From contig VMGC01000001.1 of NCBI GenBank assembly GCA_007376385.1, positions 288,001-352,000 on the forward strand: 64,000 nt of DNA, read 5' to 3'. Each line of letters begins with the position of its first letter. Positions within the stretch are counted from its first letter, which is position 1. Source of the stretch: Parcubacteria group bacterium Gr01-1014_8 (GTDB taxonomy: Bacteria > Patescibacteriota > Minisyncoccia > Phycocordibacterales > UBA2100). The translations under genes and the position numbers were made by a program. Shown one piece after another: positions 6,582-32,770 of this stretch. A model generated the notes under the pieces. That model saw only the letters and a list, made by a program, of their open reading frames with translations. It had not been told where the DNA came from and did not search any database.

Positions 6582-6591
6582 CATAGACTTT

Positions 6592-12858: not shown

Positions 12859-13632
12859 ATGTATCGTAAGAATTCGTATGCACTTACAGAGAGCGTAGCG
12901 TTCATTACAGGTGCTCTCGGCCAGATCGGACGGGAGATAGTCATGCGATTCTTGGAAGACGGCGCGTTTGTCTATATCGCCGACAAAGGGAAAAAGATCA
13001 GTGACGATCTCGCAAAAAAACTGAAGCGCGCGAAATTTGATAACTACCGGTACGTCACGATTGACGTGACGAGCGAGGAGTCGATACGAGCCGTGTATAG
13101 GAAACTGACGCGTCCCGTTGATGTACTTGTCAATTGTGCCGGCATTGGCGTATATACGTCGTTTGAGTCGCGAACTTCCGACGAACTCGATACCGTGTAC
13201 GCGGTAAACCTTAAGGGCACTATCCTGTGCTCCAAGATATTTTCAGCAGGCATGATGAAGAGGAAAGGGGGTCGGATCATCAATATCGGTTCTATATACG
13301 GGATTACAACGCCGGATTTTTCAATGTACGGCGATTCCGGTAGGAATTCTTCTGAGATCTACGGCGCGACGAAAGCCGGCATTATCCAGACGACGAAATA
13401 TCTTGCGGCATACCTTGCGCCGCACAATATTCTGGTGAACTGCGTAAGTCCAGGCGGCGTCTTTAATCGCCAGAAATCCTTTTTCGTCAGACGATATAAA
13501 AAGAGGACGCCGCTTCAGCGAATGGCGGCGCCAGACGATCTTACGGGTGTTATCGCGTTTCTCGCTTCGGATGAGGCGGCGTATATCACGGGACAGAATA
13601 TCGCGGTCGACGGAGGCTTTACGATATGGTGA
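12859..13632 (+). CDS. short-chain dehydrogenase/reductase (SDR; PtmA/FabG-like)
   Basis: 257 aa. TGALGQIGREI Rossmann motif, NCAGIG, and the catalytic YGATKAGI (Y-x3-K). Confidence 0.8.
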   Translation: MYRKNSYALTESVAFITGALGQIGREIVMRFLEDGAFVYIADKGKKISDDLAKKLKRAKFDNYRYVTIDVTSEESIRAVYRKLTRPVDVLVNCAGIGVYTSFESRTSDELDTVYAVNLKGTILCSKIFSAGMMKRKGGRIINIGSIYGITTPDFSMYGDSGRNSSEIYGATKAGIIQTTKYLAAYLAPHNILVNCVSPGGVFNRQKSFFVRRYKKRTPLQRMAAPDDLTGVIAFLASDEAAYITGQNIAVDGGFTIW

Positions 13633-16028
13633 AGAAAGCCCGTAAAAAAGTATATGTGCTTGGAGCGGGAATGAGCGGGCTTGCGACCGCACTTCGGCTT
13701 GCAGAGCTCGGCGTCGATACAACCCTCGTTGAAAAAGAAAAGAAGGTCGGCGGACTCGCGGGAAGTTTCAAATGGCGCGATTTCAAGAATCTTGATTACG
13801 GACCGCATATCTACCACACACCCGACAAGAAACTGGAAGAGATATGGAAGAAGGAGTACGGCGATCTGTTCCATCAAAATGAGTTCTGGGGAAAGAACGT
13901 TAAAGGTGAGAAGTTCGACCGGTATTTTGACTACCCACTGTCATTCGAATCACTAAAAAAATTTCCTTCTGACGTGAGAAAAAAGATCATGCATGAACTG
14001 TCTCATCTCGACGAGACAAAGCTCGCAAAGGCGAAAAGTTATGCCGATTACGTACGGGAACTCGTCGGTCCCACGCTGATGGAGTATTTTTTTATCCGTT
14101 ACCCTCAAAAATTATGGGGGGTTTCCATAGATAAGATGACGGCAAACTGGGCCCCCAAGCGTGTTACATTCAGGACGAAAGACGAACATTTTCATGCAGG
14201 TCAATGGAGCGCGGTCGGGAAATACGGGTCAGGCAGGATACTGGAGAGAATGGCCGATAGATTCAAAAAAAAAGGTGGCACACTTATGCTCGGGAGTCCC
14301 GTCATGGCGATCGAGCACTCAAACGGCATCATCAAGAACATCGTACTTGACGAAAAGAAAATCAGACTTTCGTCCGACGATGCGGTTGTTTCGACGATAC
14401 CGATACCTGTCATGGCCGAGTATCTTGGCGTTAGAAATACCTTGAAATATCGTGGAGCGAAAATTGTATTTGTCGCGCTCAACAAGGAAGAGGCAATCCC
14501 CGACAAGTTCAATTTTCTTTACTACGATGCACCGGAAATAATTTTTCATCGGGTGAGTGAGCAGAAGAAATTCTGCGCGCTTGGGTTTCCAAAGAACAAA
14601 ACTGTGCTTTCGTGTGAGATCGCATACACAAAAGGGGACACGCTGGATACAACCGACGAGAAAGAGATACTGGATCGAGCTGTGAGCAGTCTCATACGTG
14701 TCGGGCTCGCCAAAAAAAATGAGGTTGAGGATGCGATGATGGTCTCCCTTCCGTACGTGTACCCTCTCTTGGTTCGCGGAAGCGAACACGAACTCGTTGA
14801 TGTGCGCGGACGTCTCGGCGCATTCAAGCAGCTCTATTGCATCGGCACCGGGGGCGATTTCCGGTACGATGACCTGCAGATACTCAATTTACGAGGGTTT
14901 GATCTCGCTGAGCGGCTTGCGTCACCTGAACTGGACGAAGATGCGGGAGAAGCTGTCAAAAAAGATTTTACGACCGGCTTTAACAACACGTTCGCGCTCG
15001 GCCGCCATACAGTTTCTGAATCCGCGCCCGCGTTCATCATTGCCGAGATCGGGCTCAACCATAACGGGAGCATGAAGCTCGCTATGGAGCTTATCGATAG
15101 GGCGGTTGAGTGCGGTTGTTCGGCCGTGAAGTTTCAGACGTACAGCGCGGGGAACAGAGTGTCGAAGGAAGTGAAGGGCAATCGATACGCCGAGAAGCTT
15201 GTAGATATGGAAGAAACAACATTCGATATGCTCAAGCGTCTGGAATTCACTACGAAAGATCACGTGCGCCTGTTTGCGTACGCCAAGCAAAAAGGAATCG
15301 AGATCTTTTCAACACCGTTCGACTTTGAAAGCGTCGATCTTCTGGAATCCCTCGGGTGCGACTTCTATAAGATTTCGTCGATGGATCTTGTGAATCTGCC
15401 GTTGATACAAAAAGTCGCAAGGACAGGGAAGCCGATGATCGTTTCGACGGGAATGTCAACGCTCGGTCAGGTCGAGGATGCCGTCAATACCATCCGGGAA
15501 ACCGGCAATAAAAATCTTGTCCTCCTGCACTGCGTCTCAATGTATCCCGCGGCGGCACAGGACGTAAACATGGCAGTTATGGGAACTCTACGGCGGGCAT
15601 TCGGAACGCCAGTCGGTTTTTCCGATCACACTATCGGTCTTTCGGCCGCGACTGTTGCGCTCGCACTCGGCGCACGTGTCATCGAACGGCACTTTACTCT
15701 CGATAGATTTATGGAGGGGCCCGATCACATTCTGTCGTCTGACCCGGATGAAATGAGAGAGCTTGTGCGTCTCAGTCATCTTATTCCCGTCATCATGGGA
15801 AAGCCAGAGAAAGTAATTCTTCCGAGCGAAACGGAAACCGTCAATAGGTTCAAGAAATGTCTGTACGCACGGAAAGACATACGTCGGGGCCAGAAAATAA
15901 CAATGGATGCGCTTGCCATAAAGGGTCCGGGAGGAGGGATATTGCCGAAATATGCCAACGTTATTGTCGGGAGGACGGCTCGAAACAGTATCAAGAGGGA
16001 TCACCCCATCCAGTGGGGCGATGTATGA
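13626..16028 (+). CDS. fusion protein: N-terminal FAD-dependent oxidoreductase (UDP-galactopyranose-mutase/amine-oxidase-like) plus C-terminal NeuB-family nonulosonic-acid synthase with SAF domain
   Basis: 800 aa. N-terminus VYVLGAGMSGLATALRLAELGVDTTLVEKEKKVGGLAGSF dinucleotide-binding motif and DYGPHIYHT (compare Glf KYGAHIFHT). From about aa 455, PAFIIAEIGLNHNGSMKLAMELIDRAVECGCSAVKFQTY plus a C-terminal SAF-like tail form the NeuB/PseI/LegI signature. Confidence 0.7.
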   Translation: MVKKARKKVYVLGAGMSGLATALRLAELGVDTTLVEKEKKVGGLAGSFKWRDFKNLDYGPHIYHTPDKKLEEIWKKEYGDLFHQNEFWGKNVKGEKFDRYFDYPLSFESLKKFPSDVRKKIMHELSHLDETKLAKAKSYADYVRELVGPTLMEYFFIRYPQKLWGVSIDKMTANWAPKRVTFRTKDEHFHAGQWSAVGKYGSGRILERMADRFKKKGGTLMLGSPVMAIEHSNGIIKNIVLDEKKIRLSSDDAVVSTIPIPVMAEYLGVRNTLKYRGAKIVFVALNKEEAIPDKFNFLYYDAPEIIFHRVSEQKKFCALGFPKNKTVLSCEIAYTKGDTLDTTDEKEILDRAVSSLIRVGLAKKNEVEDAMMVSLPYVYPLLVRGSEHELVDVRGRLGAFKQLYCIGTGGDFRYDDLQILNLRGFDLAERLASPELDEDAGEAVKKDFTTGFNNTFALGRHTVSESAPAFIIAEIGLNHNGSMKLAMELIDRAVECGCSAVKFQTYSAGNRVSKEVKGNRYAEKLVDMEETTFDMLKRLEFTTKDHVRLFAYAKQKGIEIFSTPFDFESVDLLESLGCDFYKISSMDLVNLPLIQKVARTGKPMIVSTGMSTLGQVEDAVNTIRETGNKNLVLLHCVSMYPAAAQDVNMAVMGTLRRAFGTPVGFSDHTIGLSAATVALALGARVIERHFTLDRFMEGPDHILSSDPDEMRELVRLSHLIPVIMGKPEKVILPSETETVNRFKKCLYARKDIRRGQKITMDALAIKGPGGGILPKYANVIVGRTARNSIKRDHPIQWGDV

Positions 16029-17065
16029 AGAGTCCCGTCATAGAGAATATTTTACGAAAGATACGCGCCGGTTCCAAACGCCGCGCGACAGGCTTTGTCA
16101 TCGGAAACACCTCCGGAGTTTTCAAACAAGGCCGATTGTATCCGATTCCTATCCGGGAGACGGGTACACTCATTTACGGCGGTGTGATCGTTCGTGATGT
16201 CGCTACCGCCGGAGCTGTCGCGCGCATGATAGACGGCAAGACGGACTACGTATTTGTTGATGCGGAAAAGAAGATCGAGACAATGTATCATGGTAAAAAC
16301 GATGTCGGCAACATCGAGCGGATGGTTCGCGGCGTCATATTGAAATCGAAGATAATTACCTACAAAGGCAACGACCTGACAAAAGACGCAATCGACTTTC
16401 TTCTCGGTCAGCTTATCGTTGATATTGGCGGAACGACTGTCGCCGTGATCGGATGCGGGAATCTCGGTGCAAAAATAGCGCTTAAATTGGTGGAGCGAGG
16501 AGCTCATGTCCGTGCGTACCGGAGGGACAAAGGGAAGCTGCGGAAAATTGTGACGGGTCTCAATCAGATAAAATCAGAACACACGCTTTCGTCCATCTGG
16601 GCGGCGCGGAGTATAGCGGATGCGTGTAAAGGTGCGAGCGCAGTTATCGCAACAGCAGACAGCCAGGGCATTATCAAACACGATCATTTGAAATTCATGA
16701 ATATCGCCCGCCCGCCCATCCTGATCGATGCGGGAAAAGGCTGTTTTTCGGATGATGTAGTGAGAAGTGATGCATACGCCATATACCGTGCCGATGTGTC
16801 CATCGCGCAAAAGCATATTTTTTCGGCGCTTCTTGAGACGAAATTACACTATGGGCGATCGATAGGACGGCGCGTGCTCGAGGATGGCAATGTGGGCCTC
16901 GTGTCGCTCGGGCTCCTTGGAAAAAAAGGGGAGGTCATCGTGGATGATATTGATTCCCCGCGGCGCATTATCGGTGTCGCTGACGGGAGGGGCAAGTTGA
17001 TGAAGAATGTCGGGAGTCAGAAGAAAGTTGTTGAGAAAATACGGCGCATGTTTAATGCATCATAA
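16025..17065 (+). CDS. NAD(P)-binding Rossmann-fold protein (putative dehydrogenase; family unclear)
   Basis: Track ORF 15857..17065 trimmed to the ATG at 16025 (ATGA overlap with the upstream stop). Contains a TVAVIGCGNLGAKIALKL dinucleotide-binding motif. Confidence 0.4.
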   Translation: MKSPVIENILRKIRAGSKRRATGFVIGNTSGVFKQGRLYPIPIRETGTLIYGGVIVRDVATAGAVARMIDGKTDYVFVDAEKKIETMYHGKNDVGNIERMVRGVILKSKIITYKGNDLTKDAIDFLLGQLIVDIGGTTVAVIGCGNLGAKIALKLVERGAHVRAYRRDKGKLRKIVTGLNQIKSEHTLSSIWAARSIADACKGASAVIATADSQGIIKHDHLKFMNIARPPILIDAGKGCFSDDVVRSDAYAIYRADVSIAQKHIFSALLETKLHYGRSIGRRVLEDGNVGLVSLGLLGKKGEVIVDDIDSPRRIIGVADGRGKLMKNVGSQKKVVEKIRRMFNAS

Positions 17066-17070
17066 TTTCT

Positions 17071-17835
17071 ATGTCTCGGCACCCTCGCGTTATCGCAATC
17101 ATTCAGGCACGCATGTCCTCAACACGCATGCCGGGCAAAGTGCTGCTTGACCTTTTACCCGGCGTATCAGTCGTGGAATACATGCTTCGGCGTGTTTCAG
17201 CAAGTACAGAAGTCGATACGAGCATTGTTGCGACCACTGATAATCCAAGGGATGCCGTGCTGGTCGAGAACATGAAGGCGATAGGGCAGTCTTTCTTTGT
17301 AGGCAGTGAAGGGGATGTGCTAGACCGATACTACAATGCAGCAAAAAAATACGGAGCCAAGGCAGGAGACATGATAGTGCGCTTAACCTCTGATTGTCCA
17401 GTCATCGATCCCAAAGAAATCGATGCGACGGTCAGATTTTATCGTCAACATGATTTTGACTACGCCTCAAACAATCTTGAGCCATACTCATTCCCTGACG
17501 GCATGGATACTGAAGTATTTTCTTTCGAGGCCCTGGAAAAGGCGTGGAACGATGCGACCAGTCAGTCGCATCGCGAGCACGTCACTTTTTATTTCTGGAA
17601 AAATCCGCAGATCTTCAAGATAGGACAGTATGTGAATCCCAAACGAAATCAGGACGAGTATCGGCTTACACTCGATTACCCATCTGACTACGTGTTACTG
17701 AAAAAAGTTGCGGAATATTTCTCGCCGCGCATGGATTACTCCATGCAGGAAATCATTGATTTTCTGGATTCTCATCTTGACGTGAAGGCTCTGAATGCGG
17801 ATGTTGCGCGCAATGTGCACTTCAAGACGGCATGA
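17071..17835 (+). CDS. acylneuraminate cytidylyltransferase-like (candidate CMP-pseudaminic acid synthetase, PseF-like)
   Basis: 254 aa. VIAIIQARMSSTRMPGKVLLDL... is paralogous to 8400-9128. Lies upstream of the pseB/pseC/pseI-like genes. Confidence 0.65.
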   Translation: MSRHPRVIAIIQARMSSTRMPGKVLLDLLPGVSVVEYMLRRVSASTEVDTSIVATTDNPRDAVLVENMKAIGQSFFVGSEGDVLDRYYNAAKKYGAKAGDMIVRLTSDCPVIDPKEIDATVRFYRQHDFDYASNNLEPYSFPDGMDTEVFSFEALEKAWNDATSQSHREHVTFYFWKNPQIFKIGQYVNPKRNQDEYRLTLDYPSDYVLLKKVAEYFSPRMDYSMQEIIDFLDSHLDVKALNADVARNVHFKTA

Positions 17836-17874
17836 CGCGACGAACAAGAAAGTTGGTGATATGCTCGGATAATT

Positions 17875-19221
17875 ATGACGATGAAAAAGACTCCGGCTGA
17901 CAGATTGCAGGGGAAGGGGCAGAAGCTCTGGAAGAAGGCCAAGACGCTCATACCTGGCGGGAACCAACTTCTTTCCAAGCGGGCGGAGATGTTTCTGCCG
18001 GATAACTGGCCCGCGTACTATTCGAAAGCGAGCGGTCCGTACGTTTGGGATCTCGATGGCCGCCGGTACATGGATGTCGGCAGTATGGCCGTCGGTAGCT
18101 GCCTTCTCGGCTATGCTGACAAAGATGTGAATAAGGCAGTGAAAGAAGCAGTTGATCGCGGTTCGATGTCCACTCTGAACGCACCCGAAGAAGTTGAGCT
18201 GGCGGAACTGCTCTGCAAGATCCATCCGTGGGCGGACATGGTGCGCTACGCGAGAGGGGGAGGCGAGAGCATGGCAATAGCTGAGCGTATCGCGCGCGCT
18301 TACACAGGACGCGACATTATTCTGTTCTGCGGATATCACGGCTGGTCGGACTGGTATCTGGCCGCGAATCTCTCATCGGATAAGGCGCTCGACGGGCACT
18401 TATTGCCGGGACTCGAGCCACGCGGCGTTCCGCGGGGGCTTGCGGGCACAATAGTACCGTTCCACTATAACAACATTGATGAGCTCGAAGCTCTTGCAAA
18501 GAAATACGGAAAGAAAGTAGCCGCAATCGTTATGGAGCCCGTGCGCAGCGAACCGCCGGAAAATAATTTTCTAAAGAAAGTGCGAAGGATGGCCGACAGG
18601 CTCGGTGCCGTTCTTGTATTCGACGAGATATCCATCGGGTGGAAACTGACATACGGAGGGGCGCATCTCCTGTATGGAGTCAACCCCGACATTGCGGTAT
18701 TCAGCAAGGCGATGAGTAATGGTTTTCCTATGGCGGCAGTGATTGGCCGAAGGGAAGTGATGCAGGCGGCGCAAAGCTCGTTCATCTCAAGTACCTATTG
18801 GACCGACAGAACAGGCCCAAGTGCGGCGCTCGCGACGCTGAAGAAAATGAAACGAGTAAATGTCACACAGCATATCAGCCGCATAGCGCGTATCACGCGT
18901 GCCGGGTGGGTGCGCCTGGCAAAGAAGCACGGACTTTCTATCGCCATCGGGTGGTCCCTGCCGTACAGTTCGTTCACGTTTACTGACCAGAAAGATACTC
19001 TTGCCCTCAAGACGCTTTTTAATCAGGAGATGCTGCGGCGTGGTTTTCTCGCTACAACGGCGTTCACTCCGTCAGCGACACATACACCGCAACACATTCG
19101 GCAGTATCTAAAAGCGGTGGACGAAGTTTTCGGCATACTTGCGGACGCGCTCAAAAAGGGGGACGTGAAGAAGCGTCTCCAAGGCCCTCCGGTCCATTCG
19201 CATTTTCAGCGTCTGAACTGA
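17875..19221 (+). CDS. class-III PLP aminotransferase (glutamate-1-semialdehyde aminomutase-like)
   Basis: 448 aa. HGWSDWYLAANL..., VFDEISIGWKLTYGG and AVFSKAMSNGFPMAAVIG (PLP-Lys region) resemble HemL-like class III transaminases. The context is glycan biosynthesis, not haem. Confidence 0.65.
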   Translation: MTMKKTPADRLQGKGQKLWKKAKTLIPGGNQLLSKRAEMFLPDNWPAYYSKASGPYVWDLDGRRYMDVGSMAVGSCLLGYADKDVNKAVKEAVDRGSMSTLNAPEEVELAELLCKIHPWADMVRYARGGGESMAIAERIARAYTGRDIILFCGYHGWSDWYLAANLSSDKALDGHLLPGLEPRGVPRGLAGTIVPFHYNNIDELEALAKKYGKKVAAIVMEPVRSEPPENNFLKKVRRMADRLGAVLVFDEISIGWKLTYGGAHLLYGVNPDIAVFSKAMSNGFPMAAVIGRREVMQAAQSSFISSTYWTDRTGPSAALATLKKMKRVNVTQHISRIARITRAGWVRLAKKHGLSIAIGWSLPYSSFTFTDQKDTLALKTLFNQEMLRRGFLATTAFTPSATHTPQHIRQYLKAVDEVFGILADALKKGDVKKRLQGPPVHSHFQRLN

Positions 19222-19303
19222 TAGCGTGCGTTGTTTTTTCGGTGTCGACTCCCAACTTGTTTTCGTTGACCCGCCGGCGAAGAGGCGTTACAGTGGGGCG
19301 CTC

Positions 19304-20287
19304 ATGTCTGCAAGCTATCTCCGCGGCAAGACAATTCTCATAACTGGCGGGACCGGTACGTTCGGGCGTGCAATGGTACAGCACCTGCTTGCGATGCCCA
19401 AGGTAAAGCGTGTCATTGTGTTCAGCCGGGACGAGTATAAGCAGAGTGTCATGGAGAGTGAATTTCATGACCCTCGTCTCCATTTTTTTATAGGTGATGT
19501 ACGCGACCGTAACCGGCTCGAGCGTGCGTTTAATCATGTAGATGTTGTTATACATGCGGCCGCTCTCAAACAGGTTCCTGCTCTCGAATACAATCCATCG
19601 GAGGCGATTGAGACCAATATAATCGGGACTCGCAATGTGATAGATGCCGCGCATGAGCGTAACGTAGAGCGAGTTTTGATCATTTCGTCTGACAAAGCGG
19701 TCCAGCCGATAAACCTCTACGGCGCCACAAAATTGTGCGCCGAACGTCTGGCGGTTGCCGCAAATTCCTATCGCGGGAAGCATGGCAAGACGCGCATCAG
19801 TGTTGTTCGATACGGCAATGTTATCGGAAGCCGCGGTTCTCTGGTTGAGATCATCGGAAAGCAGCGTCAAAGCGGTACATTGATGCTGACCGACGAGGGG
19901 ATGACTCGTTTCTGGCTGCATATCGATGAGATCATGAAGCTCGTAACGAACATTATCGGTTTGATGCAGGGTGGCGAGATATTCATTCCAAAGATGTCCA
20001 GTCTTCGTATAGAAGATGTCATGCGTGAGCTTGCACCTGAGTGCATCATAAAGATAGTCGGTATGCGGCCCGGTGAAAAAATGCATGAGACGTTGATGAC
20101 GGAGCATGAGGCGCCACGCGCGAAAGATCTCGGCAATATGTATGTCATTGTGCCGGAATTCCACCCGTGGACCGCAAAAAAAATGTATGCAAACAAAAAG
20201 TCGTTTCCAAAAGATCTGGTATATGTCAGCAATCATCCGAAATATCTTCTTTCACGTTCCCACGTAAAGAAAGTGCTAAAGGTATGA
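19304..20287 (+). CDS. pseB: UDP-N-acetylglucosamine 4,6-dehydratase (inverting), PseB/FlaA1/CapD-like
   Basis: Track ORF trimmed to the ATG at 19304 (MSASYLRGKTILITGGTGTFGRAMV...). Short CapD-type extended SDR with YGATKLCAE catalytic motif, immediately followed by a PseC-like transaminase. Confidence 0.75.
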   Translation: MSASYLRGKTILITGGTGTFGRAMVQHLLAMPKVKRVIVFSRDEYKQSVMESEFHDPRLHFFIGDVRDRNRLERAFNHVDVVIHAAALKQVPALEYNPSEAIETNIIGTRNVIDAAHERNVERVLIISSDKAVQPINLYGATKLCAERLAVAANSYRGKHGKTRISVVRYGNVIGSRGSLVEIIGKQRQSGTLMLTDEGMTRFWLHIDEIMKLVTNIIGLMQGGEIFIPKMSSLRIEDVMRELAPECIIKIVGMRPGEKMHETLMTEHEAPRAKDLGNMYVIVPEFHPWTAKKMYANKKSFPKDLVYVSNHPKYLLSRSHVKKVLKV

Positions 20288-21423
20288 AATTGCCGTACTC
20301 GCGGCAAACAATCGGCGAGGATGATATCCGTGAGGTCATACGGACGCTAAAATCTCCTTTTATCACACAGGGGCCAAAGATAGCGGAATTCGAGAAGGCA
20401 TTAGCGCGTTTTTGTCGTGCAAAGTATGCTGTTGTTTTTTCGAGCGGTACTGCAGCGCTTCATAGTGCGTACGCGGCGGCCGGTATTGGGGAAGGAGACG
20501 AGGTTATCATGCCGGCGCTTACCTTTGCCGCGACGGCAAATGCCGCGCTGTATCTCGGAGCCACGCCTGTGTTCGTAGATATTGATAAGTCCACGGCGAA
20601 TATGGATATGCGGGATGCTAAAAAAAAGATAACAAAGCACACGAAAGCTATCGTACCCGTCGATTACGCGGGGCTGCCAGCCGACCTTACAGTATGTCGC
20701 GCGCTTGCAAAAAAGCATAAACTCATTCTTATTGAGGACGGAGCACAGAGCCTCGGAGCCATATACAAAGGGAAGCCGGTTGGCACACAGGCTGACATGA
20801 CCATGTTCAGTTTCCATCCCGTGAAGACCATCACGACGGGAGAAGGTGGCGCTGTCGTAACGAACAGCAAAAAATTCTACGATTACTTGTTAATGTATCG
20901 CACGCACGGCATGACGAAGGATCCTAGGAAGTTAACAGATACAACGAAGGCCGCATGGCATCAAGAAATGCACATGCTCGGGAATAATTATCGGATGACC
21001 GATATTCAGGCGGCACTCGGAGTGAGTCAGATGAAAAAAATACGAACATTTCTTGCGAAACGACATGCGGCCGCCCGCCGGTACTTTTCTCTGCTTAAAC
21101 ATATTGAGGGACTCACGCTGCCTCCGCGCTCTTCGCTCGCGTCGTCCGCATGGCACCTTTTTGTGGTGCGCGTCGATAAAACTGTGCGTGACATGGTATT
21201 CGAAACACTTCGGGCAAAGGGGATAGGTGTACAGGTCCACTACCTGCCCGTCTATACGCATCCGTATTACAAGTCTCTGGGATATCGTGGAACGCAATGC
21301 CCGACGACGGAAGAATTCTCAGCTTCGGCGCTGTCTATTCCGCTTTTTCCGAATATTACATATCGTGAGCAGTCATATGTCGCGACTGAACTCGAGAAGG
21401 CGCTCAGGAAAGCTCGGTTTTAA
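20284..21423 (+). CDS. pseC: UDP-4-amino-4,6-dideoxy-N-acetyl-beta-L-altrosamine transaminase-like (DegT family)
   Basis: Trimmed to the ATG at 20284 (MKLPYSRQTIGEDDIREVIRTLKSPFITQGPKIAEFEKAL, compare the PseC N-terminus). PLP lysine in FSFHPVKTITTGEGG. ATGA overlap with pseB. Confidence 0.75.
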   Translation: MKLPYSRQTIGEDDIREVIRTLKSPFITQGPKIAEFEKALARFCRAKYAVVFSSGTAALHSAYAAAGIGEGDEVIMPALTFAATANAALYLGATPVFVDIDKSTANMDMRDAKKKITKHTKAIVPVDYAGLPADLTVCRALAKKHKLILIEDGAQSLGAIYKGKPVGTQADMTMFSFHPVKTITTGEGGAVVTNSKKFYDYLLMYRTHGMTKDPRKLTDTTKAAWHQEMHMLGNNYRMTDIQAALGVSQMKKIRTFLAKRHAAARRYFSLLKHIEGLTLPPRSSLASSAWHLFVVRVDKTVRDMVFETLRAKGIGVQVHYLPVYTHPYYKSLGYRGTQCPTTEEFSASALSIPLFPNITYREQSYVATELEKALRKARF

Positions 21424-21479
21424 TTACTCATGGGAGCGGGCTATAGTGGGGTGATAATGTGTGGAAGGGACACAATCGT

Positions 21480-22391
21480 ATGACTAAATCACGCCTCGTT
21501 CTCGGCACGACGCAGCTTGGCATGCGTTACGGCTTAAACAACAGCATAGGTCAGCCGTCGAAGGAGCAGGCCTTCGAAATACTCGATGCCGCTCTGGAGG
21601 GAGGTATCGACACGTTTGATATTGCCTATGCATACGGCACTGCCGAAGATGTTATGGGGGAATGGATCGAGAGCAGGAATGTGAGGGATCGTATTTTCGT
21701 CATCTCAAAAATGAAGCCGCATGTTTTGAATGATTATCCCGACGGTACAAAGGCGGTAGACATTGTCCTTGCGGAGATTGAAAAGTCTCTTAAGCGGTTG
21801 CGGCTCAAAAAACTTGACGGATATCTTCTGCACACCCCGTCGTATGTGTATCTTGCGCACGTCATTGCGGGTCTGCATAAAGCGAAGGAGCAGGGACTCG
21901 TCGGCAATATCGGCGTATCCGTCTACGACGAACACGAGGCCCTGCAGGGCGCAGAACTCGCGCTCGACTATATCCAGATTCCGTCTAACGTGCTCGATCA
22001 GCGCATGGAAAAGACAGTTTTTTGGGAACTCGTGCGGAAAAATAATGTGACGGTATTCGCGCGTAGCCCGTTTCTTCAGGGACTTCTATTGATGGAACCC
22101 GAACACATACCGCCGCACCTTGCATATGCCCGTCCGCATGTCGAAAAACTCCGTAGCATTGCGGGAGAGAATAACCTTTCGCCGGCTCAAGCAGCGTTGT
22201 TGTTCTCGTATATTCGGTCGAAAGCCAAGCACATAGTCTTTGGTGCTGAGAGTGTCACACAGCTTGCGGAAAATATCGCGACGACGAAACACGCCAAGGA
22301 GAGCGCATGGATGGAAGAAATTGACAAAAGTTTCAGCAACATCGAACGTGCGGTAGTGAACCCGAGTCTATGGAGCACCATCAGACAATAG
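21480..22391 (+). CDS. aldo/keto reductase family oxidoreductase
   Basis: Start set at MTKSRLVLGTTQLGMRYG. FDIAYAYGTAEDVMGEW and the (alpha/beta)8 AKR pattern. Confidence 0.7.
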   Translation: MTKSRLVLGTTQLGMRYGLNNSIGQPSKEQAFEILDAALEGGIDTFDIAYAYGTAEDVMGEWIESRNVRDRIFVISKMKPHVLNDYPDGTKAVDIVLAEIEKSLKRLRLKKLDGYLLHTPSYVYLAHVIAGLHKAKEQGLVGNIGVSVYDEHEALQGAELALDYIQIPSNVLDQRMEKTVFWELVRKNNVTVFARSPFLQGLLLMEPEHIPPHLAYARPHVEKLRSIAGENNLSPAQAALLFSYIRSKAKHIVFGAESVTQLAENIATTKHAKESAWMEEIDKSFSNIERAVVNPSLWSTIRQ

Positions 22392-22396
22392 GTGAG

Positions 22397-22849
22397 ATGC
22401 GATATCGGCGTGCCACAATGGGCGATAGCGCACAGCTTTTCATATGGCGCAACGACCCTGTAACCCGGGAAAATTCGCGGAACGGGAAGCTGCTCGAATT
22501 TACAGAACATACTCAATGGCTGGAAACGGCATTGCAGAATTCGGATCGTCAGATATACATCGCGGAATTTGAAAACGAGCAGATTGGTGTTGTTCGCACT
22601 GATCGGATTGGCGACGTATTGGAACTATCGTGGACAGTAGTACCCGAGTGTCGCGGAAAGGGGTTGGGAAAAAAGATGGTCGTCGGCTTCGTGATGGAAG
22701 TTCTCGGCAGTCCGTCGAAATTACGTGCCTCAATACGCAAAGGAAACATCGCGTCGGAGAAAATTGCGCTAGCGCTCGGCCTGCGCTCTGTTCGGGAAGA
22801 ATCTGGCGCTGATGGACCGCCGATGGTCGTCTGGGAGACCCGAATATGA
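22397..22849 (+). CDS. GNAT-family N-acetyltransferase (PseH-like)
   Basis: About 150 aa. The acetyl-CoA binding segment VVPECRGKGLGKKMV has the R/Q-x-x-G-x-G/A motif. Located between the pseC-like and pseI-like genes. Confidence 0.55.
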   Translation: MRYRRATMGDSAQLFIWRNDPVTRENSRNGKLLEFTEHTQWLETALQNSDRQIYIAEFENEQIGVVRTDRIGDVLELSWTVVPECRGKGLGKKMVVGFVMEVLGSPSKLRASIRKGNIASEKIALALGLRSVREESGADGPPMVVWETRI

Positions 22850-23565
22850 TCGTGAGTGTTTACACCGCAATTTCTTCTTGGAATTCAGGTAGAATCATGT
22901 GGCCGAAGATGGTACAAATGACCAATCTGTCAGTAGGGTATATGCTAAAAAAGACTCTTCGTTCGTCGTTTCCATCGATCTACCATGCGCTTTGGCGTAT
23001 CAAAGAATTTATGAGGACAGGTCATTTCACTAAGCGATGGGAGCACTACTATGAAGCAAATACAGGAAAAAGTCCGTGGATCACGGATGCGATACCTGAA
23101 CTCTCGAACATACAGTTGCCGGCTCATGTTGATACCATTCTCGACGTTGGTTGTGCATCGGGCCGTAGCTTCATACCGTTTGACCGGAAGCTTAAGTTGT
23201 GGGGCATCGATATCGTTCCGTATGGGCGCATAAAATGGGTTCGGCCATTCTCAAACCTGACCTATGAGCAGATTACTGTCGAAAAATTAACCGAGAGGTT
23301 TGAGCGCGAGGAAATCGATCTCTCGCATACATTTGTCTTTGAATGCGGAACTCTGATGTACATTGGGGCGGACTATCAGAACCGCTTCTTTAATGCCTGC
23401 CAGAAGCGGGGCTGCCGAAATTTCATGTTTCTTGATTATCCGCCAGGTACGGTAGGGTATGAGGATGAACATCTGAAGATATCGGAGGATCTTTTCAAAA
23501 AATCCGATAGTTCGATGAATGAAAAGTTGAAAGTCTACACCCTGATGGAATCTTCTCGCGACTGA
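22846..23565 (+). CDS. putative class I SAM-dependent methyltransferase
   Basis: 239 aa. ILDVGCASGRS resembles SAM motif I. Otherwise no close family recognised. Confidence 0.4.
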   Translation: MIVSVYTAISSWNSGRIMWPKMVQMTNLSVGYMLKKTLRSSFPSIYHALWRIKEFMRTGHFTKRWEHYYEANTGKSPWITDAIPELSNIQLPAHVDTILDVGCASGRSFIPFDRKLKLWGIDIVPYGRIKWVRPFSNLTYEQITVEKLTERFEREEIDLSHTFVFECGTLMYIGADYQNRFFNACQKRGCRNFMFLDYPPGTVGYEDEHLKISEDLFKKSDSSMNEKLKVYTLMESSRD

Positions 23566-23591
23566 AAGGAAGCCGTGATAGCATCGCCATA

Positions 23592-24641
23592 ATGTTCAAA
23601 ATAGGGCAAAGGGACATAGGCAGGGGAGCGCCGGTGTTTATTGTTGCGGAAGTGTCGGGCAATCATAATGGCGACATCAAGCGTGCACTCGATATCATCG
23701 ACGCGGCGGCAGATGCGGGCGCAGACGCCGTGAAGCTGCAGACATACACGCCGGATACGATGACCATCGACTCCGACCTCCCGTATTTCAAGGTTCATTC
23801 GAAGAACAGCAAATGGGACGGGAAGACGCTTTACGAACTGTATGCATGGGCGCAAACGCCGTGGGAATGGCATGAGAAACTTTTTGCACGCGCAAAAAGA
23901 CGAGGACTCATATGCTTTTCAACGCCTTTCGATGAAACGGCTGTCGATTTTCTGGAAAAACTTAGCCAGCCCGTCTACAAAGTCGCTTCGTTCGAAGTGG
24001 TTGATATTCCTCTTCTCGAGCGGATCGGAAAGACCAAGAAGCCTGTCATCATGTCACGAGGCATGGCCACAACTTCTGAACTTTCTCTTGCATTGAAAAC
24101 ATTAAAAAAAGCGGGTGCTCCAAGCGTTGCAGTGCTCCAATGTGTGAGTGAATATCCCGCCAAGCCAGAAGACATGCATCTTTCGAATATTCCGGATATC
24201 GAAAAAAGATTTAAAGTAGTCGCTGGCCTTTCCGACCACACCCTTTCCAATGATACCGTTGTCGCGGCCGTTGCTCTCGGTGCATGCATTATCGAGAAGC
24301 ATCTTACTCTGCGGCGTGCCGATGGGGGACCTGACGCATCATTCTCTCTTGAGCCGCACGAATTCAAAGAACTCGTTGCCTCTGTGCGCGAAGTTGAGCG
24401 GGCAATAGGAAAGCCATCCTTCGAGCGCTCAAAAGGAGAGGTTGCGAATCTTGCGTTCCGCCGCTCGTTGTTTGCTGTTAAAGATATCGCGAAAGGAGAA
24501 CGATTCACCAGTCAAAATGTCCGCTCTATTCGGCCGGGGCATGGTCTTGCGCCGAAAGAGCTAACGCGCGTTCTCAAAAAGCGAGCTGCAAAAAACATCA
24601 AACGTGGAGAACCCTTGTCACTTCGGCTCTTGAGATATTGA
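23592..24641 (+). CDS. pseI: pseudaminic acid synthase-like NeuB-family enzyme
   Basis: 349 aa. APVFIVAEVSGNHNGDIKRALDIIDAAADAGADAVKLQTY and a C-terminal SAF-like domain (KGERFTSQNVRSIRPGHGL). Second NeuB homolog in the window. Confidence 0.8.
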   Translation: MFKIGQRDIGRGAPVFIVAEVSGNHNGDIKRALDIIDAAADAGADAVKLQTYTPDTMTIDSDLPYFKVHSKNSKWDGKTLYELYAWAQTPWEWHEKLFARAKRRGLICFSTPFDETAVDFLEKLSQPVYKVASFEVVDIPLLERIGKTKKPVIMSRGMATTSELSLALKTLKKAGAPSVAVLQCVSEYPAKPEDMHLSNIPDIEKRFKVVAGLSDHTLSNDTVVAAVALGACIIEKHLTLRRADGGPDASFSLEPHEFKELVASVREVERAIGKPSFERSKGEVANLAFRRSLFAVKDIAKGERFTSQNVRSIRPGHGLAPKELTRVLKKRAAKNIKRGEPLSLRLLRY

Positions 24642-25963
24642 GACAACAGCATATGAGTCTTGATAATGTATCAATGCGTCTCCGCTCTCCCGAGGAAATC
24701 GAGGCGTTAGAAACCAACATTCTCACCTATGAGAACCCAGATGCGGATCCGAAATCGAAACGTGTTCTAGTGTCAGCGGATAACCCCGGGGCGTTCAATG
24801 CGATGCAACATATTGTTCGCGCGCTTATGCACGATTCTCGTTGCAGTGGGGTAGTTGCTCTTATGTCCGGCAAAGCAATGGAGAACTTCGACAAAGAATG
24901 TCCGGGATTTACTCATGTGCGCGATGAAGAAACGAGACCCGATGGTTCAAAGCGACTGAAGGGCATCTTTGAAGAGTTAGGCGATCTTTCAGAAAAACAC
25001 CCATTCGATGTGGCGCTTGTGTCCATTTCTGCGAAAGACGGTCCAGAAACATCGCTGCTCTTCGCAGGCAAAGGAGTGTTCGGTAAAAAGGGTTTTCTTG
25101 GGTTCGGAAGAATGAAAACGTATATGTACGTTGATGCGTGGGGAGGTCCAGGAGGCGCATTCAAACTACCGACCGATCAAATGGAAAAGATGGATGGTAT
25201 CTTTTGTAACGATAATCTCGCAAAGGGCATTATCCATCGTGCATATCCTAACTTTCCAGAGCAACGTATACAGGCACTCGGTTCCCCTGTTGCAGAGCAT
25301 ATCGACCCCTCTCGTGTGAAAGAGAATCGGGAAAAGGCTCGACAAGAGCTTAAGATATCGAGCGACAGTTTTGTCGTATTTTATATTGGTGATCGAGCGC
25401 GCGACTATGAAGGCCACTCGATATATAACCCTAATTCGAACATCGAGACATTTGAAAAAACGACTGATGTCCTGAAAACATGGGCGCAGAAGGAGAAGAA
25501 CCGCAATCGGAAAATTGCCTTCATTACGCGGCCGCACCCTCGCGATGAAGAAAAGGCTCGTTTCGAGAGAGTGGTGAGAGCCACCGCGAATGATATGCCT
25601 CCAAATATTCAGATTGTGTTTGCAACCGATACTGACGGAGAGCGCGATCGTCGCTTGTTTGGGCTTTGTGCAGATGCAGCAAATGTGGTGGCTGGTATTA
25701 TTCCCACAGATGTGCAGATGGCGCCTTTGAGAGGCAGTAACGGCATATACCTCGCCTTTCCAGAGCGGGGGCTGGGGAAAGACATTCAGTTGCAGATTTG
25801 GGGGCCGCTTGTAGGTTCTGTGGAAACGGAGAGGATAAAAATTGTATCCTCGGCAGGTGGGCTGGAGCGTGCTTTCGACGCATTTCTACAGGAGACTTCA
25901 TATGGATCCTCGGCATCGTCGGCAGGGGCAACGGCAGGAATAGTTGAAACAATACTTCGGTAA
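24638..25963 (+). CDS. hypothetical protein; possible GT-B-fold enzyme (candidate PseG-like UDP-sugar hydrolase or transferase)
   Basis: 441 aa. Two Rossmann-like halves (KRVLVSADNPGAFNAMQHIVRAL... / ...KIAFITRPHP...ANVVAGIIPTD). Its position after pseI, where PseG is otherwise missing, prompts the suggestion. Weak. Confidence 0.3.
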   Translation: MRQQHMSLDNVSMRLRSPEEIEALETNILTYENPDADPKSKRVLVSADNPGAFNAMQHIVRALMHDSRCSGVVALMSGKAMENFDKECPGFTHVRDEETRPDGSKRLKGIFEELGDLSEKHPFDVALVSISAKDGPETSLLFAGKGVFGKKGFLGFGRMKTYMYVDAWGGPGGAFKLPTDQMEKMDGIFCNDNLAKGIIHRAYPNFPEQRIQALGSPVAEHIDPSRVKENREKARQELKISSDSFVVFYIGDRARDYEGHSIYNPNSNIETFEKTTDVLKTWAQKEKNRNRKIAFITRPHPRDEEKARFERVVRATANDMPPNIQIVFATDTDGERDRRLFGLCADAANVVAGIIPTDVQMAPLRGSNGIYLAFPERGLGKDIQLQIWGPLVGSVETERIKIVSSAGGLERAFDAFLQETSYGSSASSAGATAGIVETILR

Positions 25964-25970
25964 TGTTTGT

Positions 25971-27467
25971 ATGAAAGGCCTATTTATATTGCAGCGACGA
26001 TTTGCGTACATCGGCCATGAGATGGCGAAATTCCTTAAAGCGGACGGTGTTGCCGATGAATTTTGCGGGTACGTGCAAGTACGCGACGGCTATAGATTTC
26101 TGAAGGGCCAGAGCGATATCCGTTATACCGGATTAATTCTTGATGAGGACATACAGAAACAGTACAGAGATGAAAAACTTGATATCGCATATCTTGCGAA
26201 ACTTGAAGAAGAGTACGGCACGCTTTGGAAATATATCAATGTGGATCGCGTCATCAGTCACGGACAACTTGTGCGTGAGTACCCTTTTGACCGCTCGCCA
26301 TATACGCACGAAGAAATGCTCCGCATGGTGCAAGTGTATGCAAAGAACATCGAAGCGTTTCTTGATAGAGAGAAGCCGGATTTTGTCTTTGGCTACATAT
26401 TCGGCAGTCTCGGCATGCTTCTTCTCCATGACATGGCACAGAAACGCGGTATTCCAATTCTTACGACAATAGTTCCCTCGACGCGCGATCTTGTCTCGGT
26501 AACCGGTTCGTACGAGCGTATCACCGGAGTCGAAGAAAGGTTCCGCGACAATCTAAAGAAACCGTTAGAGCAGATAGAATCATACAGCGAAGCGCGGGAT
26601 TTTCTTGAAGAATTCCGCAGAAAACCCTTTGTCTATACGAAAGTCGTTGTTTCTCGGGTGAAGGGAGGACGCTTTGCGCAATTCTCGTTCTTAAGACCTC
26701 GGCAGGTGTTGTGGACTCTGTACTTCAATTTTTTCCACATTTTTATCGAATGGATGCGCGATAGCGAACGCCGCACAGACTACTCGACTGTGAACCCGTT
26801 TTTTCATGTGTATGACCATGTAAAGAGAAAATTACGCAACCTCGTCGGACTCAATGATCTCTATGATGTATTCGATACGTCGAAGTCGTACGCGTTTTTT
26901 CCCTTACAGTACGAGCCTGAAACGACGCTGCTTCTCCTCGCTCCGAACGAGACAGATCAAGTGCAGACGATTACTCGCACCGCCTGTTCGCTTCCTGCAG
27001 GCATGCTTCTGTATGTGAAAGAGCACCCTGGCATGACCCCGTACCGTCCGCGCGCGTTCTATCGCAGACTAAAAAAAATACCGAACGTCCGTCTCATGAA
27101 TCCCGCGCTTTCGAGTTTCGAGATCATCAAACACTGCAGATTGGTGACTGTTATCAGCGGTACGCCGGGCTGGGAGGCCGCCCTTCTCAAAAAACCAGTC
27201 ATCACGTTCGGCCACGTTTTTTACAATGCCTTGTCATTCATTGGAAAATACCGTGTGCCTGAAGAATTGCCGGAACTTGTCCGGAAGCAACTTAGCGTGC
27301 AAACAGATGATAAGGAATTGCTTGCATTCCTTGCTGCTCTTTTTGCGGATTGTGCGTCGCTTGACTTGATGTATTTGTGGGAGATAGAAGAAAACGAAGA
27401 AAAGCGCCGCGTAGGTTTCAAGAAGTTTGCGGATGTGCTCGCTGCGAAGATACGTTTGATAGAATGA
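25971..27467 (+). CDS. putative capsule-synthesis (KpsC/KpsS-like) ulosonic-acid transferase; paralog of 10185-11606
   Basis: Track ORF 25944 trimmed to the ATG at 25971. Shares the xxTGTPGWEAxLxxxPVIxFG motif and overall length with 10185-11606. Confidence 0.4.
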   Translation: MKGLFILQRRFAYIGHEMAKFLKADGVADEFCGYVQVRDGYRFLKGQSDIRYTGLILDEDIQKQYRDEKLDIAYLAKLEEEYGTLWKYINVDRVISHGQLVREYPFDRSPYTHEEMLRMVQVYAKNIEAFLDREKPDFVFGYIFGSLGMLLLHDMAQKRGIPILTTIVPSTRDLVSVTGSYERITGVEERFRDNLKKPLEQIESYSEARDFLEEFRRKPFVYTKVVVSRVKGGRFAQFSFLRPRQVLWTLYFNFFHIFIEWMRDSERRTDYSTVNPFFHVYDHVKRKLRNLVGLNDLYDVFDTSKSYAFFPLQYEPETTLLLLAPNETDQVQTITRTACSLPAGMLLYVKEHPGMTPYRPRAFYRRLKKIPNVRLMNPALSSFEIIKHCRLVTVISGTPGWEAALLKKPVITFGHVFYNALSFIGKYRVPEELPELVRKQLSVQTDDKELLAFLAALFADCASLDLMYLWEIEENEEKRRVGFKKFADVLAAKIRLIE

Positions 27468-31789: not shown

Positions 31790-32770
31790 CTATCCGCGTT
31801 TCGTAAATCGTTTAGCAATGAGTGCCGGGTTCAAAACATATTTGAGGAGCGAATGACGCAGCTCTCTCAGCGCATGCCAACCGGAAATATGAGGGTCAGG
31901 CCAGTTTGAGTACCACTCTGGCATAAGAGGATATTTTTCTTCGAGCGCACGATGCTGATCATTCGATACATACATAGCTTTTAAAAGAAGGGGTTTTACA
32001 TCGCCTTTGCCGTACCACGCCGCGAATGCGCGGGAATCTTTGGGGAGGCAGTGCCCTCCGAATGAACGGCCATACCGAAGGTAACTGCGGCCGTCAAAAA
32101 GAAAGTCGATGACACCTGCAATGCTCGCAAGCTCTTCTTTTGTCGAGGGTCTGCCTATCATATCGCCGAATTCGTTGACGAACGCGATGCGGGTCGCGTT
32201 CCACAGATTGGAAAGGTATTTTATGAGCGATGCGTCATGTGGTGTACCCTCGAATGTTTTTCTGGATTTAGAACGCCACATATTGAATATCGATGGTTCG
32301 GGTCGTGGATGTGGAAGAGAGCCGATTACAAGAAGATAGGGGTTGACGCACTCATCGACAGCCATTTTCTCGTGCAGAAATTCCGGCACATAGTAATCGA
32401 ACTTCAGATTTTTCAATAAATCCGGAAGAATTGTCGAGCGGAGCATCACACCTCCCCGTACACCCGAAAGGGAATTGAGCGCTTTTTGGATGTTGGAGAT
32501 ATCCTGGGTGCCGTCTTCGGAAACGCGATCACCAACGCACACTATGTACCACGTGTGTTCGGAATCTTTTTCTTTCAACTCCGGTAATCGCGGAATTGCA
32601 TCGTATAGCGCAGTATGTCCGGTGTAATGTCGCGGCGGATTTCCCGGATCGAAATATGACACCTCATATCCGAGTATTTTCATAGCAAGAGCGTTCGCCT
32701 GTCCCACCCAGCCGAAACCAACGATGACCATTTTTTCGCTCGTTGACATAGATAAAGACGAATATAGCAC
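31790..32770 (-). CDS. UDP-glucose/GDP-mannose dehydrogenase-family protein, short form
   Basis: 326 aa. N-terminal VIVGFGWVGQANA NAD-binding motif and the catalytic-cysteine motif GGHCLPKD (compare GGSCFPKD). Shorter than canonical Ugd at its C-terminus. Confidence 0.55.
   Translation of the reverse strand: MLYSSLSMSTSEKMVIVGFGWVGQANALAMKILGYEVSYFDPGNPPRHYTGHTALYDAIPRLPELKEKDSEHTWYIVCVGDRVSEDGTQDISNIQKALNSLSGVRGGVMLRSTILPDLLKNLKFDYYVPEFLHEKMAVDECVNPYLLVIGSLPHPRPEPSIFNMWRSKSRKTFEGTPHDASLIKYLSNLWNATRIAFVNEFGDMIGRPSTKEELASIAGVIDFLFDGRSYLRYGRSFGGHCLPKDSRAFAAWYGKGDVKPLLLKAMYVSNDQHRALEEKYPLMPEWYSNWPDPHISGWHALRELRHSLLKYVLNPALIAKRFTKRG

Follow-up and report, generated by a model that had tools for sequence, protein, structure and literature searches.

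The DNA analysed here, referred to as the window, is a stretch of 64,000 nucleotides (positions 288,001 to 352,000 of contig VMGC01000001.1) from the metagenome-assembled genome of a groundwater Parcubacteria bacterium, a member of the Candidate Phyla Radiation (CPR; Patescibacteria). Within it we investigated nine consecutive plus-strand open reading frames (ORFs) at 17071-25963, which a preliminary description had read as a near-complete pathway for pseudaminic acid (Pse) with an unrecognised protein where PseG would be expected. The order claimed for these genes was borne out: they encode a cytidylyltransferase (CT2), a class-III aminotransferase (AT3), PseB, PseC, an aldo-keto reductase (AKR), a GNAT acyltransferase, a methyltransferase-like protein, PseI and an unannotated protein, U441, each at the position given. 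Judged by sequence comparison, the pathway is real and of the pseudaminic-acid type. We consider it probable, by a modest measure, that the interval encodes the 'AKR + class-III aminotransferase + SpsF-like cytidylyltransferase' variant of this pathway, in which PseG is replaced by the unannotated GT-B family to which U441 belongs.

Assignment of the core genes was based on hidden Markov models (HMMs) and their NCBIfam equivalog cut-offs. The E-values of the family matches obtained for the nine ORFs are much too low to be due to chance. PseC, the UDP-4-amino-4,6-dideoxy-beta-L-AltNAc aminotransferase (20284-21423, plus strand; the ORF opens at 20167 and the start is ATG 20284), scored 459 bits with TIGR03588, above the cut-off of 423.5, and 246.8 bits with the LegC model. 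PseI, a pseudaminic acid synthase of the NeuB family (23592-24641, plus strand), likewise exceeded its cut-off (TIGR03586, 475.2 bits vs 340.25), while its score with the NeuB_NnaB model was 315.3 bits, below the cut-off of 399.65. PseB, the UDP-GlcNAc inverting 4,6-dehydratase (19304-20287, plus strand; the ORF opens at GTG 19226, and ATG 19304 fits the family model), reached 395.9 bits with TIGR03589, which is 12 bits short of the cut-off of 407.75. This was still its top model (FnlA 221, LegB 66.8), and its best solved relative was H. pylori PseB (2gn4, 302.5 bits), followed by CapE (209) and PglF (123). These scores do not place PseB and PseC in the PglF/PglE or legionaminic-acid (Leg) clades. 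The GNAT N-acyltransferase (22370-22849, plus strand, with an alternative start at ATG 22397; Acetyltransf_3 1.6e-10) is weakly PseH-like: TIGR03585 was its sole NCBIfam match at 42.6 bits, below the cut-off of 93.1, and C. jejuni PseH (4xpk, E 0.0019) was its sole match in the PDB. Among the genome loci compared with the window, which carry labels of the form Lnnn, homologues of this GNAT adjoin PseI in L030, L033, L051 and L076. The profile assignments thus confirmed PseC and PseI and left PseB and the GNAT below their cut-offs; those of PseF, as described below for CT2, and of PseG failed.

PseG, the UDP-2,4-diacetamido-2,4,6-trideoxy-beta-L-altropyranose hydrolase (TIGR03590), for which a C. 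jejuni structure is cited in PMC3694923 (ref 70), was absent from the ORFs of the window. TIGR03590 matched none of the 40 window ORFs scanned, and an HMM built from ten genuine PseG sequences found nothing at E<=10 when all window ORFs of 50 aa or more were searched. The synthase itself gives some indication of what it is fed. Window PseI is 49-53% identical both to synthases of PseG-type loci (L030, L041, L043, L054 and L084, chosen as those with the closest synthases) and to that of the U441-type locus L051, and this roughly equal similarity argues for the same hexose substrate.

The preliminary description had also reported 4-nt overlaps between stops and starts throughout, and took them to indicate translational coupling. 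Such overlaps were found at one to three of the eight junctions, which does not bear out uniform coupling. The single secure case is PseB/PseC (ATG 20284, stop 20287). The overlap between the GNAT and the methyltransferase-like gene requires a start at ATG 22846, whereas homologues begin at the residue of ATG 22942; that between PseI and U441 requires TTG 24638 (441 aa), whereas the public annotation starts at ATG 24653 (436 aa). At the remaining junctions the genes are separated by 26-82 nt or, in one case, overlap by 22 nt. The unit extends beyond the interval first described, since a Capsule_synth/BFO_1060-like glycosyltransferase gene follows directly at 25971-27467. At the other end the first two genes (17071-19221) form the conserved tail of an upstream module (12859-19221), and the left boundary is ambiguous.

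U441 (24653-25963, plus strand; the ORF opens at TTG 24638) is the protein that we propose as a nucleotide-sugar hydrolase replacing PseG. The window protein had no Pfam or NCBIfam family match, Epimerase_2 and Glyphos_transf included. A word-indexed search gave 8 homologues and hence the appearance of a tiny family; this was set aside when an exhaustive profile search returned 275 cluster representatives, of which 107 had E<1e-30. Counted in this way and clustered at 50% identity, the family amounts to about 275 clusters, most of which lack annotation. In an alignment of 111 members His295 is invariant, Arg293 and Pro296 are near-invariant (together an RPHPR motif), and DGIFCND, TGTPxxD, LYxGDxS and AADxxxSIxSTE are further motifs. 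An AlphaFold model computed from this alignment had a predicted local distance difference test (pLDDT) score of 93.2 and a predicted template-modelling (pTM) score of 0.91. It superseded an earlier model from eight sequences (pLDDT 64.8), which had given generic GT-B matches to LpxB and MGD1. The model shows two Rossmann-like domains with an inter-domain cleft, so that the GT-B fold looked for in the 441-aa ORF was indeed found.

Comparison of this model with solved structures by Foldseek gave a top 25 consisting nearly entirely of UDP-sugar 2-epimerases. Among the structural matches that were scored, the hydrolysing GDP/UDP-diNAcBac 2-epimerase of the NeuC/LegG type (5zlr) had 22.5 (305 residues, 3.5 A), the epimerase domain of human GNE (4zht) 21.4 and M. 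jannaschii UDP-GlcNAc 2-epimerase 20.9, followed by generic GT-B enzymes (HepE, MurG and TarL, 20.0-19.4) and by TagF (16.6). PseG was not among the top 60 structural matches. In the predicted structure, then, the closest folds of U441 are the hydrolysing 2-epimerases NeuC, LegG and GNE, from which it differs in several respects. Identity to them (5zlr, 4zht) is 12-14%; U441 is extended by about 40 residues at the N-terminus and has insertions, and many other family members carry another leader of about 40 residues; and its operon partners are of the Pse type (PseB/PseC/PseI), not of the Leg or Neu type. Profile comparison aligned the RPHPR motif with STHPRS of the epimerase CapG. Shorter relatives of 325-360 aa in L007, L010 and L039 (U441 HMM, E 1e-14 to 1e-16) form a bridge towards Epimerase_2; the one in L039 and a weaker relative in L016 (7e-06) reached 25-28 bits with that Pfam family, whose gathering threshold is 30.6. 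By its sequence, U441 lies between the Epimerase_2 and TagF-like families, and the U441 family is equidistant from the two.

Likeness to PseG itself is of a different kind. U441 is longer (about 440 aa vs about 280-350 aa), has no counterpart of the N-terminal IGxGHxxR motif of PseG, and resembles it in sequence only in the generic C-terminal GT-B motif (hhalign 24.7%). What the two proteins have in common is the GT-B fold, the operon slot after AT3 and before the GNAT and PseI genes, and fusions to GNAT domains, and their distribution suggests the same role. Eight close members of the U441 family directly adjoin AT3. The order is PseC-U441-(AT3) in L001, L003/L004, L005, L006 and L089, and PseB-U441-AT3-CT in L002 (CT, cytidylyltransferase); in L035 and L051 it is AT3-U441, the full order of L051 being PseB-PseC-..-GFO-CT-AT3-U441-GNAT-PseI. 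Genuine PseG (TIGR03590; 274 bits in L041, 225 in L043, 217 in L076 and 133 in L084) holds this very slot after AT3 in other loci, as AT3-PseG in L041 and L084 and as AT3-PseG::GNAT-PseI in L043. When loci were scanned with both the PseG and the U441 HMM, none of 13 U441 loci contained PseG and none of 10 PseG loci contained U441. Two members of the U441 family in diamino-sugar clusters are fusions, P0189 with a GNAT domain (PF13302) and P0182 with a FemAB/Acetyltransf_6 domain. Both parallel fusions of PseG with PseH, and the GNAT fusions point to a step at the level of the nucleotide sugar. As a separate observation, the U441 homologues at L002 9646-11053 and L035 2224-3677 are each split over two overlapping frames, which could reflect a frameshift, a pseudogene or an assembly error.

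The earlier suggestion that the 441-aa protein provides the PseG function is thus supported by its context and its GT-B fold, and the idea that it would resemble PseG did not hold up, the nearest folds being NeuC, LegG and GNE. The simplest reading is that U441 is a functional equivalent of PseG whose evolutionary origin lies elsewhere within the GT-B superfamily, on its epimerase/TagF side. Several observations weigh against this reading. The complementarity of PseG and U441 is just suggestive: of the 19 loci that combine PseB, PseC, a synthase and AT3, nine have PseG, four have U441 or a short relative and six have neither (Fisher p ~0.05). Those six pse-type loci, with no PseG or U441 relative within 10 kb, imply that genes elsewhere can supply the step or that it can proceed in another way. 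The search for PseG covered 64 kb of a 408-kb contig. In the window, U441 follows PseI and adjoins a transferase gene, not the GNAT gene. Finally, the catalytic carboxylates (Asp/Glu) of the epimerases could not be mapped on U441, and members of the family show affinities to transferases, which are considered next. In pse-type loci of CPR bacteria that have neither PseG nor U441 (L008 15033-16238, L007 15601-18017), identity of the synthase to window PseI is only 30-38%. There the synthase gene is followed by one for a methyltransferase and by one or two for ATP-grasp ligase-like proteins, an arrangement that suggests another nonulosonate variant, perhaps an aminoacylated one.

The main rival is that U441 is a TagB/TagF-like GT-B glycosyltransferase with a sialyltransferase-type HP motif, using a CMP-nonulosonate (or CDP-activated) donor, and that PseG activity is encoded elsewhere or dispensable. 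Several observations favour this rival. Glyphos_transf (PF04464) was weakly matched by 41 of the 111 members (best 1.6e-10) and Epimerase_2 (PF02350) by three; against the PDB, the U441 profile matched TagF structures at E 7e-6, compared with 0.0017 for CapG and 0.02 for WecB among the epimerases; and hhalign gave a probability of 97.4% for similarity to TagF-like proteins of 620-640 aa, probable transferases whose genes flank those of the pse set. Moreover, His295-Pro296, invariant or nearly so, would correspond to the HP motif that TagB-like transferases for Pse and Leg in T. forsythia carry (Tanf_01245/BFO_1060, PMC5420450). These and TagF (3l7i) share with U441 the GT-B fold and the HP motif, the similarity at the profile level being weak but significant. 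The placement of U441 beside another putative transferase in the window fits as well. The gene neighbourhoods speak otherwise: close members of the family lie mid-operon (PseC-U441-AT3, AT3-U441-GNAT-PseI), whereas the Cap-like and 640-aa proteins are peripheral. The GNAT fusions and the lack of any co-occurrence with PseG in the loci compared also argue for a hydrolase. Other transferase candidates are already present in L003 and in the window, where two Capsule_synth-type transferases are available for two synthases, so that U441 is not needed in this capacity. On this evidence we regard a transferase function as unlikely.

A further alternative is that U441 is a full hydrolysing 2-epimerase of the NeuC/LegG type, combining UDP release with inversion at C2. 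By our own stereochemical reasoning the synthase would then yield, in place of Pse, its 5-epimer, with the L-glycero-L-altro configuration of acinetaminic acid. The HPR of the U441 motif aligns with the HPR of the epimerases, and the short relatives come near the Epimerase_2 threshold. However, the window protein lacks an Epimerase_2 match and identifiable catalytic carboxylates, and the synthase, which scores as a PseI equivalog (475 bits) and is about as similar to synthases of PseG-type loci as to that of the U441-type locus, suggests an unchanged substrate. We consider this improbable, the least probable of the readings put forward here. A broader proposal is that U441 represents a new family of nucleotide-sugar hydrolases, derived from the NeuC/LegG-type epimerase fold, that has supplanted PseG in CPR bacteria and in others not yet cultured; if 2-epimerase chemistry were kept and a third amino group added, the product would be an undescribed methylated 5-epi-Pse or triamino nonulosonic acid on the surface of an episymbiotic CPR bacterium. 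Taken as a whole, this proposal is speculative and quite unlikely.

With U441 as the replacement for PseG, the reactions inferred from homology would run as follows. PseB and PseC would convert UDP-GlcNAc to UDP-4-amino-4,6-dideoxy-beta-L-AltNAc, which the PseH-like GNAT would N-acylate. U441 would release UDP to give the free 2,4-diacetamido-2,4,6-trideoxyhexose, and PseI would condense this sugar with phosphoenolpyruvate. The CMP-sugar would be made by the SpsF-like cytidylyltransferase and transferred by the KpsS/BFO_1060-like protein encoded at 25971-27467. For the tailoring, oxidation by the AKR followed by transamination by AT3 might yield a triamino sugar, and the small methyltransferase-like protein, presumed to use S-adenosylmethionine (SAM), might add a methyl group. 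This tailoring, amino group and methylation alike, is the least certain part of the scheme.

CT2 (17071-17835, plus strand; CTP_transf_3 1.4e-27), the presumed CMP-nonulosonate synthetase, had been called PseF-like. It did not match TIGR03584 at E<=1e-3; KdsB models, at 56 bits, were the best of its NCBIfam matches, and among solved structures PDB 6oew, a 'cytidylyltransferase', came first at 127 bits, so that SpsF/KdsB-like is the more fitting description. AT3 (17875-19221, plus strand; Aminotran_3 1.1e-44) is a HemL-like aminotransferase dependent on pyridoxal phosphate. Its best NCBIfam model was the HemL-like PRK06209 (272.7 bits, cut-off 486); its identity as HemL itself, glutamate-1-semialdehyde 2,1-aminomutase, was rejected at 200.5 bits with TIGR00713 against a cut-off of 527.3. 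The AKR is encoded at 21459-22391 (plus strand; Aldo_ket_red 3.8e-42). The three extra functions noted previously are thus all present, the third being the methyltransferase-like protein with its LDVGCASGR motif. They had been called non-canonical, and in this respect the first description needs correcting. The trio of AT3, cytidylyltransferase and AKR occurs in dozens of loci from many phyla and in pse clusters of Aeromonas, Legionella and Vibrio that have already been described (PMC7874193, PMC3694923, PMC7371886); in the Vibrio cluster the SpsF-like cytidylyltransferase is fused to the aldo-keto reductase (PMC7371886).

All 8000 scored candidate homologues of AT3 had E<=1e-60, and among the 120 matches listed identity was 63-76%, with many from CPR bacteria. 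We kept 80 genome loci with homologues 55-75% identical, from Patescibacteria, Acidobacteriota, Opitutaceae, Omnitrophota, Planctomycetota, Spirochaetota and DPANN archaea (the last including L034, a Nanoarchaeota, and L082, a Micrarchaeota metagenome-assembled genome). Such identity over distant phyla, often with pse-type neighbours, suggests repeated horizontal transfer among episymbionts and others. Neighbours within 10 kb of AT3 were counted in these 80 loci by BLAST with the window proteins. A NeuB-type synthase was found in 36, PseC in 34, a cytidylyltransferase in 31 and PseB in 29; as for oxidoreductases, an AKR was found in 19, a GFO/IDH/MocA protein (GFO) in 21 and a short-chain dehydrogenase/reductase (SDR) in 21. 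AKR orthologues (45-57% identical) adjoin AT3 or the cytidylyltransferase in L007, L008, L011, L013 and L088, and the oxidoreductase next to the AT3/cytidylyltransferase pair is an AKR in L030, L054, L072, L084 and L088 and a GFO in L043 and L051. In other loci a GFO or an SDR takes the place of the AKR. Such interchangeability of oxidoreductases beside AT3 is what one usually sees where a dehydrogenase supplies a transaminase, and we favour the view, which goes no further than inference, that the pair installs an additional amino group. Against a tie to the Pse pathway, there are loci of Acidobacteriota and Opitutaceae in which AT3 (55-63% identity) stands alone, with no nonulosonate genes, and in these it showed no consistent minimal set of partners. 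A kinase-like gene of the APH fold lies directly 3' of AT3 in L003/L004 (8008-9072), L011 (11245-12348) and L090 (18515-19495, there with a HAD phosphatase). By analogy, this arrangement recalls pairs of a kinase with a phospho-lyase of the class-III fold and may hint at an alternative AT3 chemistry.

No function is assigned to the AKR/class-III aminotransferase pair in PMC7874193, PMC3694923 or PMC7371886, and the other published accounts that we found are descriptive genomics. Chemical data from related systems can be set beside the proposal of an extra amino group. Pse5Ac7Ac has a mass of 316 Da. The flagellin glycan of A. hydrophila AH-1 is Pse-like with a mass of 403 Da (PMC4691044). This odd mass implies an odd number of nitrogen atoms, which is compatible with an added amino group. 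With respect to 8-amino nonulosonates, the literature search yielded just a mention of a pentadeoxy compound in Flexibacter maritimus. The mention is of a 'pentadeoxynonulopyranosonic acid', in a review (PMC4052302); pentadeoxy (triamino) nonulosonates of this kind are compatible with the extra-amino-group reading.

The ambiguity at the left boundary concerns CT2 and AT3. Upstream of them, on the plus strand, lie genes for a PtmA-like SDR (12859-13632), for an 800-aa fusion of an FAD-oxidoreductase to NeuB (13626-16028) and for a 346-aa NAD-binding protein, U402 (16025-17065). The FAD part of the fusion is an amine-oxidase/UDP-galactopyranose-mutase-like domain, and its NeuB part scored 375 bits with NeuB_NnaB, just below the cut-off of 399.65; NeuC, LegB and LegC were not found near it. 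The block SDR-FAD::NeuB-U402-CT2-AT3 is kept in the same order in four Parcubacteria loci (L015-L018), at 50-65% identity to window 12859-19221, with no PseB, PseC or PseI nearby, and CT2 shares 58-64% identity with the cytidylyltransferases of these blocks, compared with 35-45% for those of pse-type loci. CT2 and AT3 are therefore orthologous to genes of a non-Pse block, which makes their assignment to the Pse branch uncertain and counts against the variant proposed here. They may instead end an upstream module that makes a different nonulosonate, the Pse branch being 19304-27467 and drawing on the second CTP_transf_3 gene of the window, CT1 (8400-9128). The FAD oxidase and AT3 would then aminate a hydroxyl, as in aminoglycoside 6'-amination, and aminoglycoside C-6' aminotransferases are indeed among the PDB relatives of AT3. 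CT1, however, is of the same SpsF/KdsB-like kind as CT2 (TIGR03584 26.6 bits vs the cut-off of 205.7) and no nearer to pse-type cytidylyltransferases. Furthermore, the stretch from PseC to the synthase contains AT3, a cytidylyltransferase and an AKR in L007, L008, L011, L013, L030, L054, L072, L084 and L088, the common order being PseB-PseC-AT3-CT-AKR-synthase (L007, L008, L011 and L013). The AKR of the window still lies among the Pse genes, without another copy of AT3, so that both branches may draw on AT3 and the cytidylyltransferase. We regard a separate upstream module as a serious possibility, if a somewhat doubtful one. In the reading that we prefer, the Pse genes here have probably lost an internal aminotransferase/cytidylyltransferase pair and share the upstream one.

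Two further proteins complete the unit. The methyltransferase-like protein (class I; 22846-23565, plus strand) has 239 aa over the full ORF, or about 207 aa from the probable true start at ATG 22942. It had no Pfam or NCBIfam match. Its six homologues are of 140-204 aa (five of them 198-204 aa), one carries PF13649, and LDxGCxxGR and WGIDI are the conserved motifs of the family. The gene at 25971-27467 (plus strand) encodes Cap507, a KpsS/KpsC-like (Capsule_synth) and BFO_1060-like glycosyltransferase that we presume to transfer the nonulosonate (Capsule_synth 2.2e-7; BFO_1060 family, NF046086, 1.9e-6). Members of the BFO_1060 family have been described as Pse/Leg transferases (PMC5420450), and Cap507 homologues flank pse genes in L024, L039, L046 and L085-L088.

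The arrangement is closest to two described systems. Among the Aeromonas islands for glycosylation of polar flagellin, group I has the order pseB-pseC-AKR-pseF-classIII AT-pseG-(pseH)-pseI and hence the same content of PseB, PseC, AKR, cytidylyltransferase, class-III aminotransferase, optional PseH and PseI (PMC7874193). In the window, by contrast, the cytidylyltransferase and AT3 stand before PseB, a KpsS/BFO_1060-like protein is present and a Maf transferase is not, U441 takes the place of PseG, and the host belongs to the CPR, the window being free of flagellar genes. Subgroups ID and IE of Aeromonas are also without a PseG orthologue and have a hypothetical protein and a methyltransferase instead (PMC7874193). 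The lipopolysaccharide O-antigen cluster of Legionella pneumophila serogroup 6/12 has in common with the window a GNAT, a HemL-like aminotransferase, a cytidylyltransferase, an aldo/keto reductase, DegT, CapD(PseB), Capsule_synth, NeuB and a methyltransferase (PMC3694923). It differs in keeping PseG, which adjoins the class-III aminotransferase, and in adding HisH/HisF/WbuX-type amidotransferase genes (PMC3694923).

The Pse genes belong to a single long surface-glycan island of about 44 kb, from about 1 kb (1026) to 44.6 kb (44614) of the window. It includes dTDP-sugar genes (RmlA/RmlB), GT2 and GT4 transferases, GtrA, a PMT_2 protein, AsnB, several methyltransferases, an MsbA/PglK-like ATP-binding cassette exporter (6349-8403) and an O-antigen-ligase/PglL-like Wzy_C protein with TPR repeats (42395-44614), a gene set consistent with lipid-linked assembly followed by en-bloc transfer to protein or lipid. 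NeuB-family synthases (13626-16028 and 23592-24641), CTP_transf_3 cytidylyltransferases (CT1 and CT2) and Capsule_synth-like proteins (10185-11606 and 25971-27467) are each present twice. A minus-strand ORF at 31790-32770 encodes a nucleotide-sugar dehydrogenase-like protein of 326 aa that covers only positions 70-297 of the 413 in TIGR03026 and may be truncated. Rfam families and tRNAs were not found in the window. To the right of the island, a single unbroken plus-strand ORF of at least 3,803 codons (52598-64000) continues past the end of the window. Its product has an N-terminal hydrophobic stretch and is rich in T (14%), G (13%), A (12%), S (11%) and N (7.5%); this is probably a surface fibre protein of giant size and plausibly a substrate of the adjacent glycosylation island. 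The rise in GC to about 0.55 and the change in skew beyond 54 kb are due to this ORF, and the minus-strand ORFs over the same interval are antisense artefacts of it. A ribosomal-protein/SecY operon at the GC-rich right end was ruled out, a search for SecY having given no match.

Taken together, the preliminary description was right in outline about a Pse pathway in which an unknown protein probably supplies the PseG step, and its claims of likeness to PseG, of unusual extras and of uniform coupling did not stand, nor is its left boundary clear-cut. The Pse variant found here is widespread and its arrangement already described; the value of the locus lies in the U441 family and in the aminotransferase/oxidoreductase pair. 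An island of about 44 kb with two nonulosonate branches is a large investment in glycans for a CPR bacterium with a small genome. Nonulosonic acids such as pseudaminic acid shape the recognition of bacterial surfaces, and in pathogens PseG is regarded as a fixed step of the pathway and as a drug target. It appears that a sizeable unannotated GT-B family takes over this nucleotide-release step. AT3, conserved at 55-75% identity in groups as far apart as Patescibacteria, Acidobacteriota, Spirochaetota and DPANN archaea, stands in nonulosonate clusters beside a variable oxidoreductase and an SpsF-like cytidylyltransferase. Its role can be tested through a defined hypothesis, that oxidation and then transamination would give a triamino sugar. 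If the replacement of PseG by U441 is true, 'PseG-less' pse clusters, including those of the Aeromonas subgroups and of many CPR genomes, would have to be re-read as complete.

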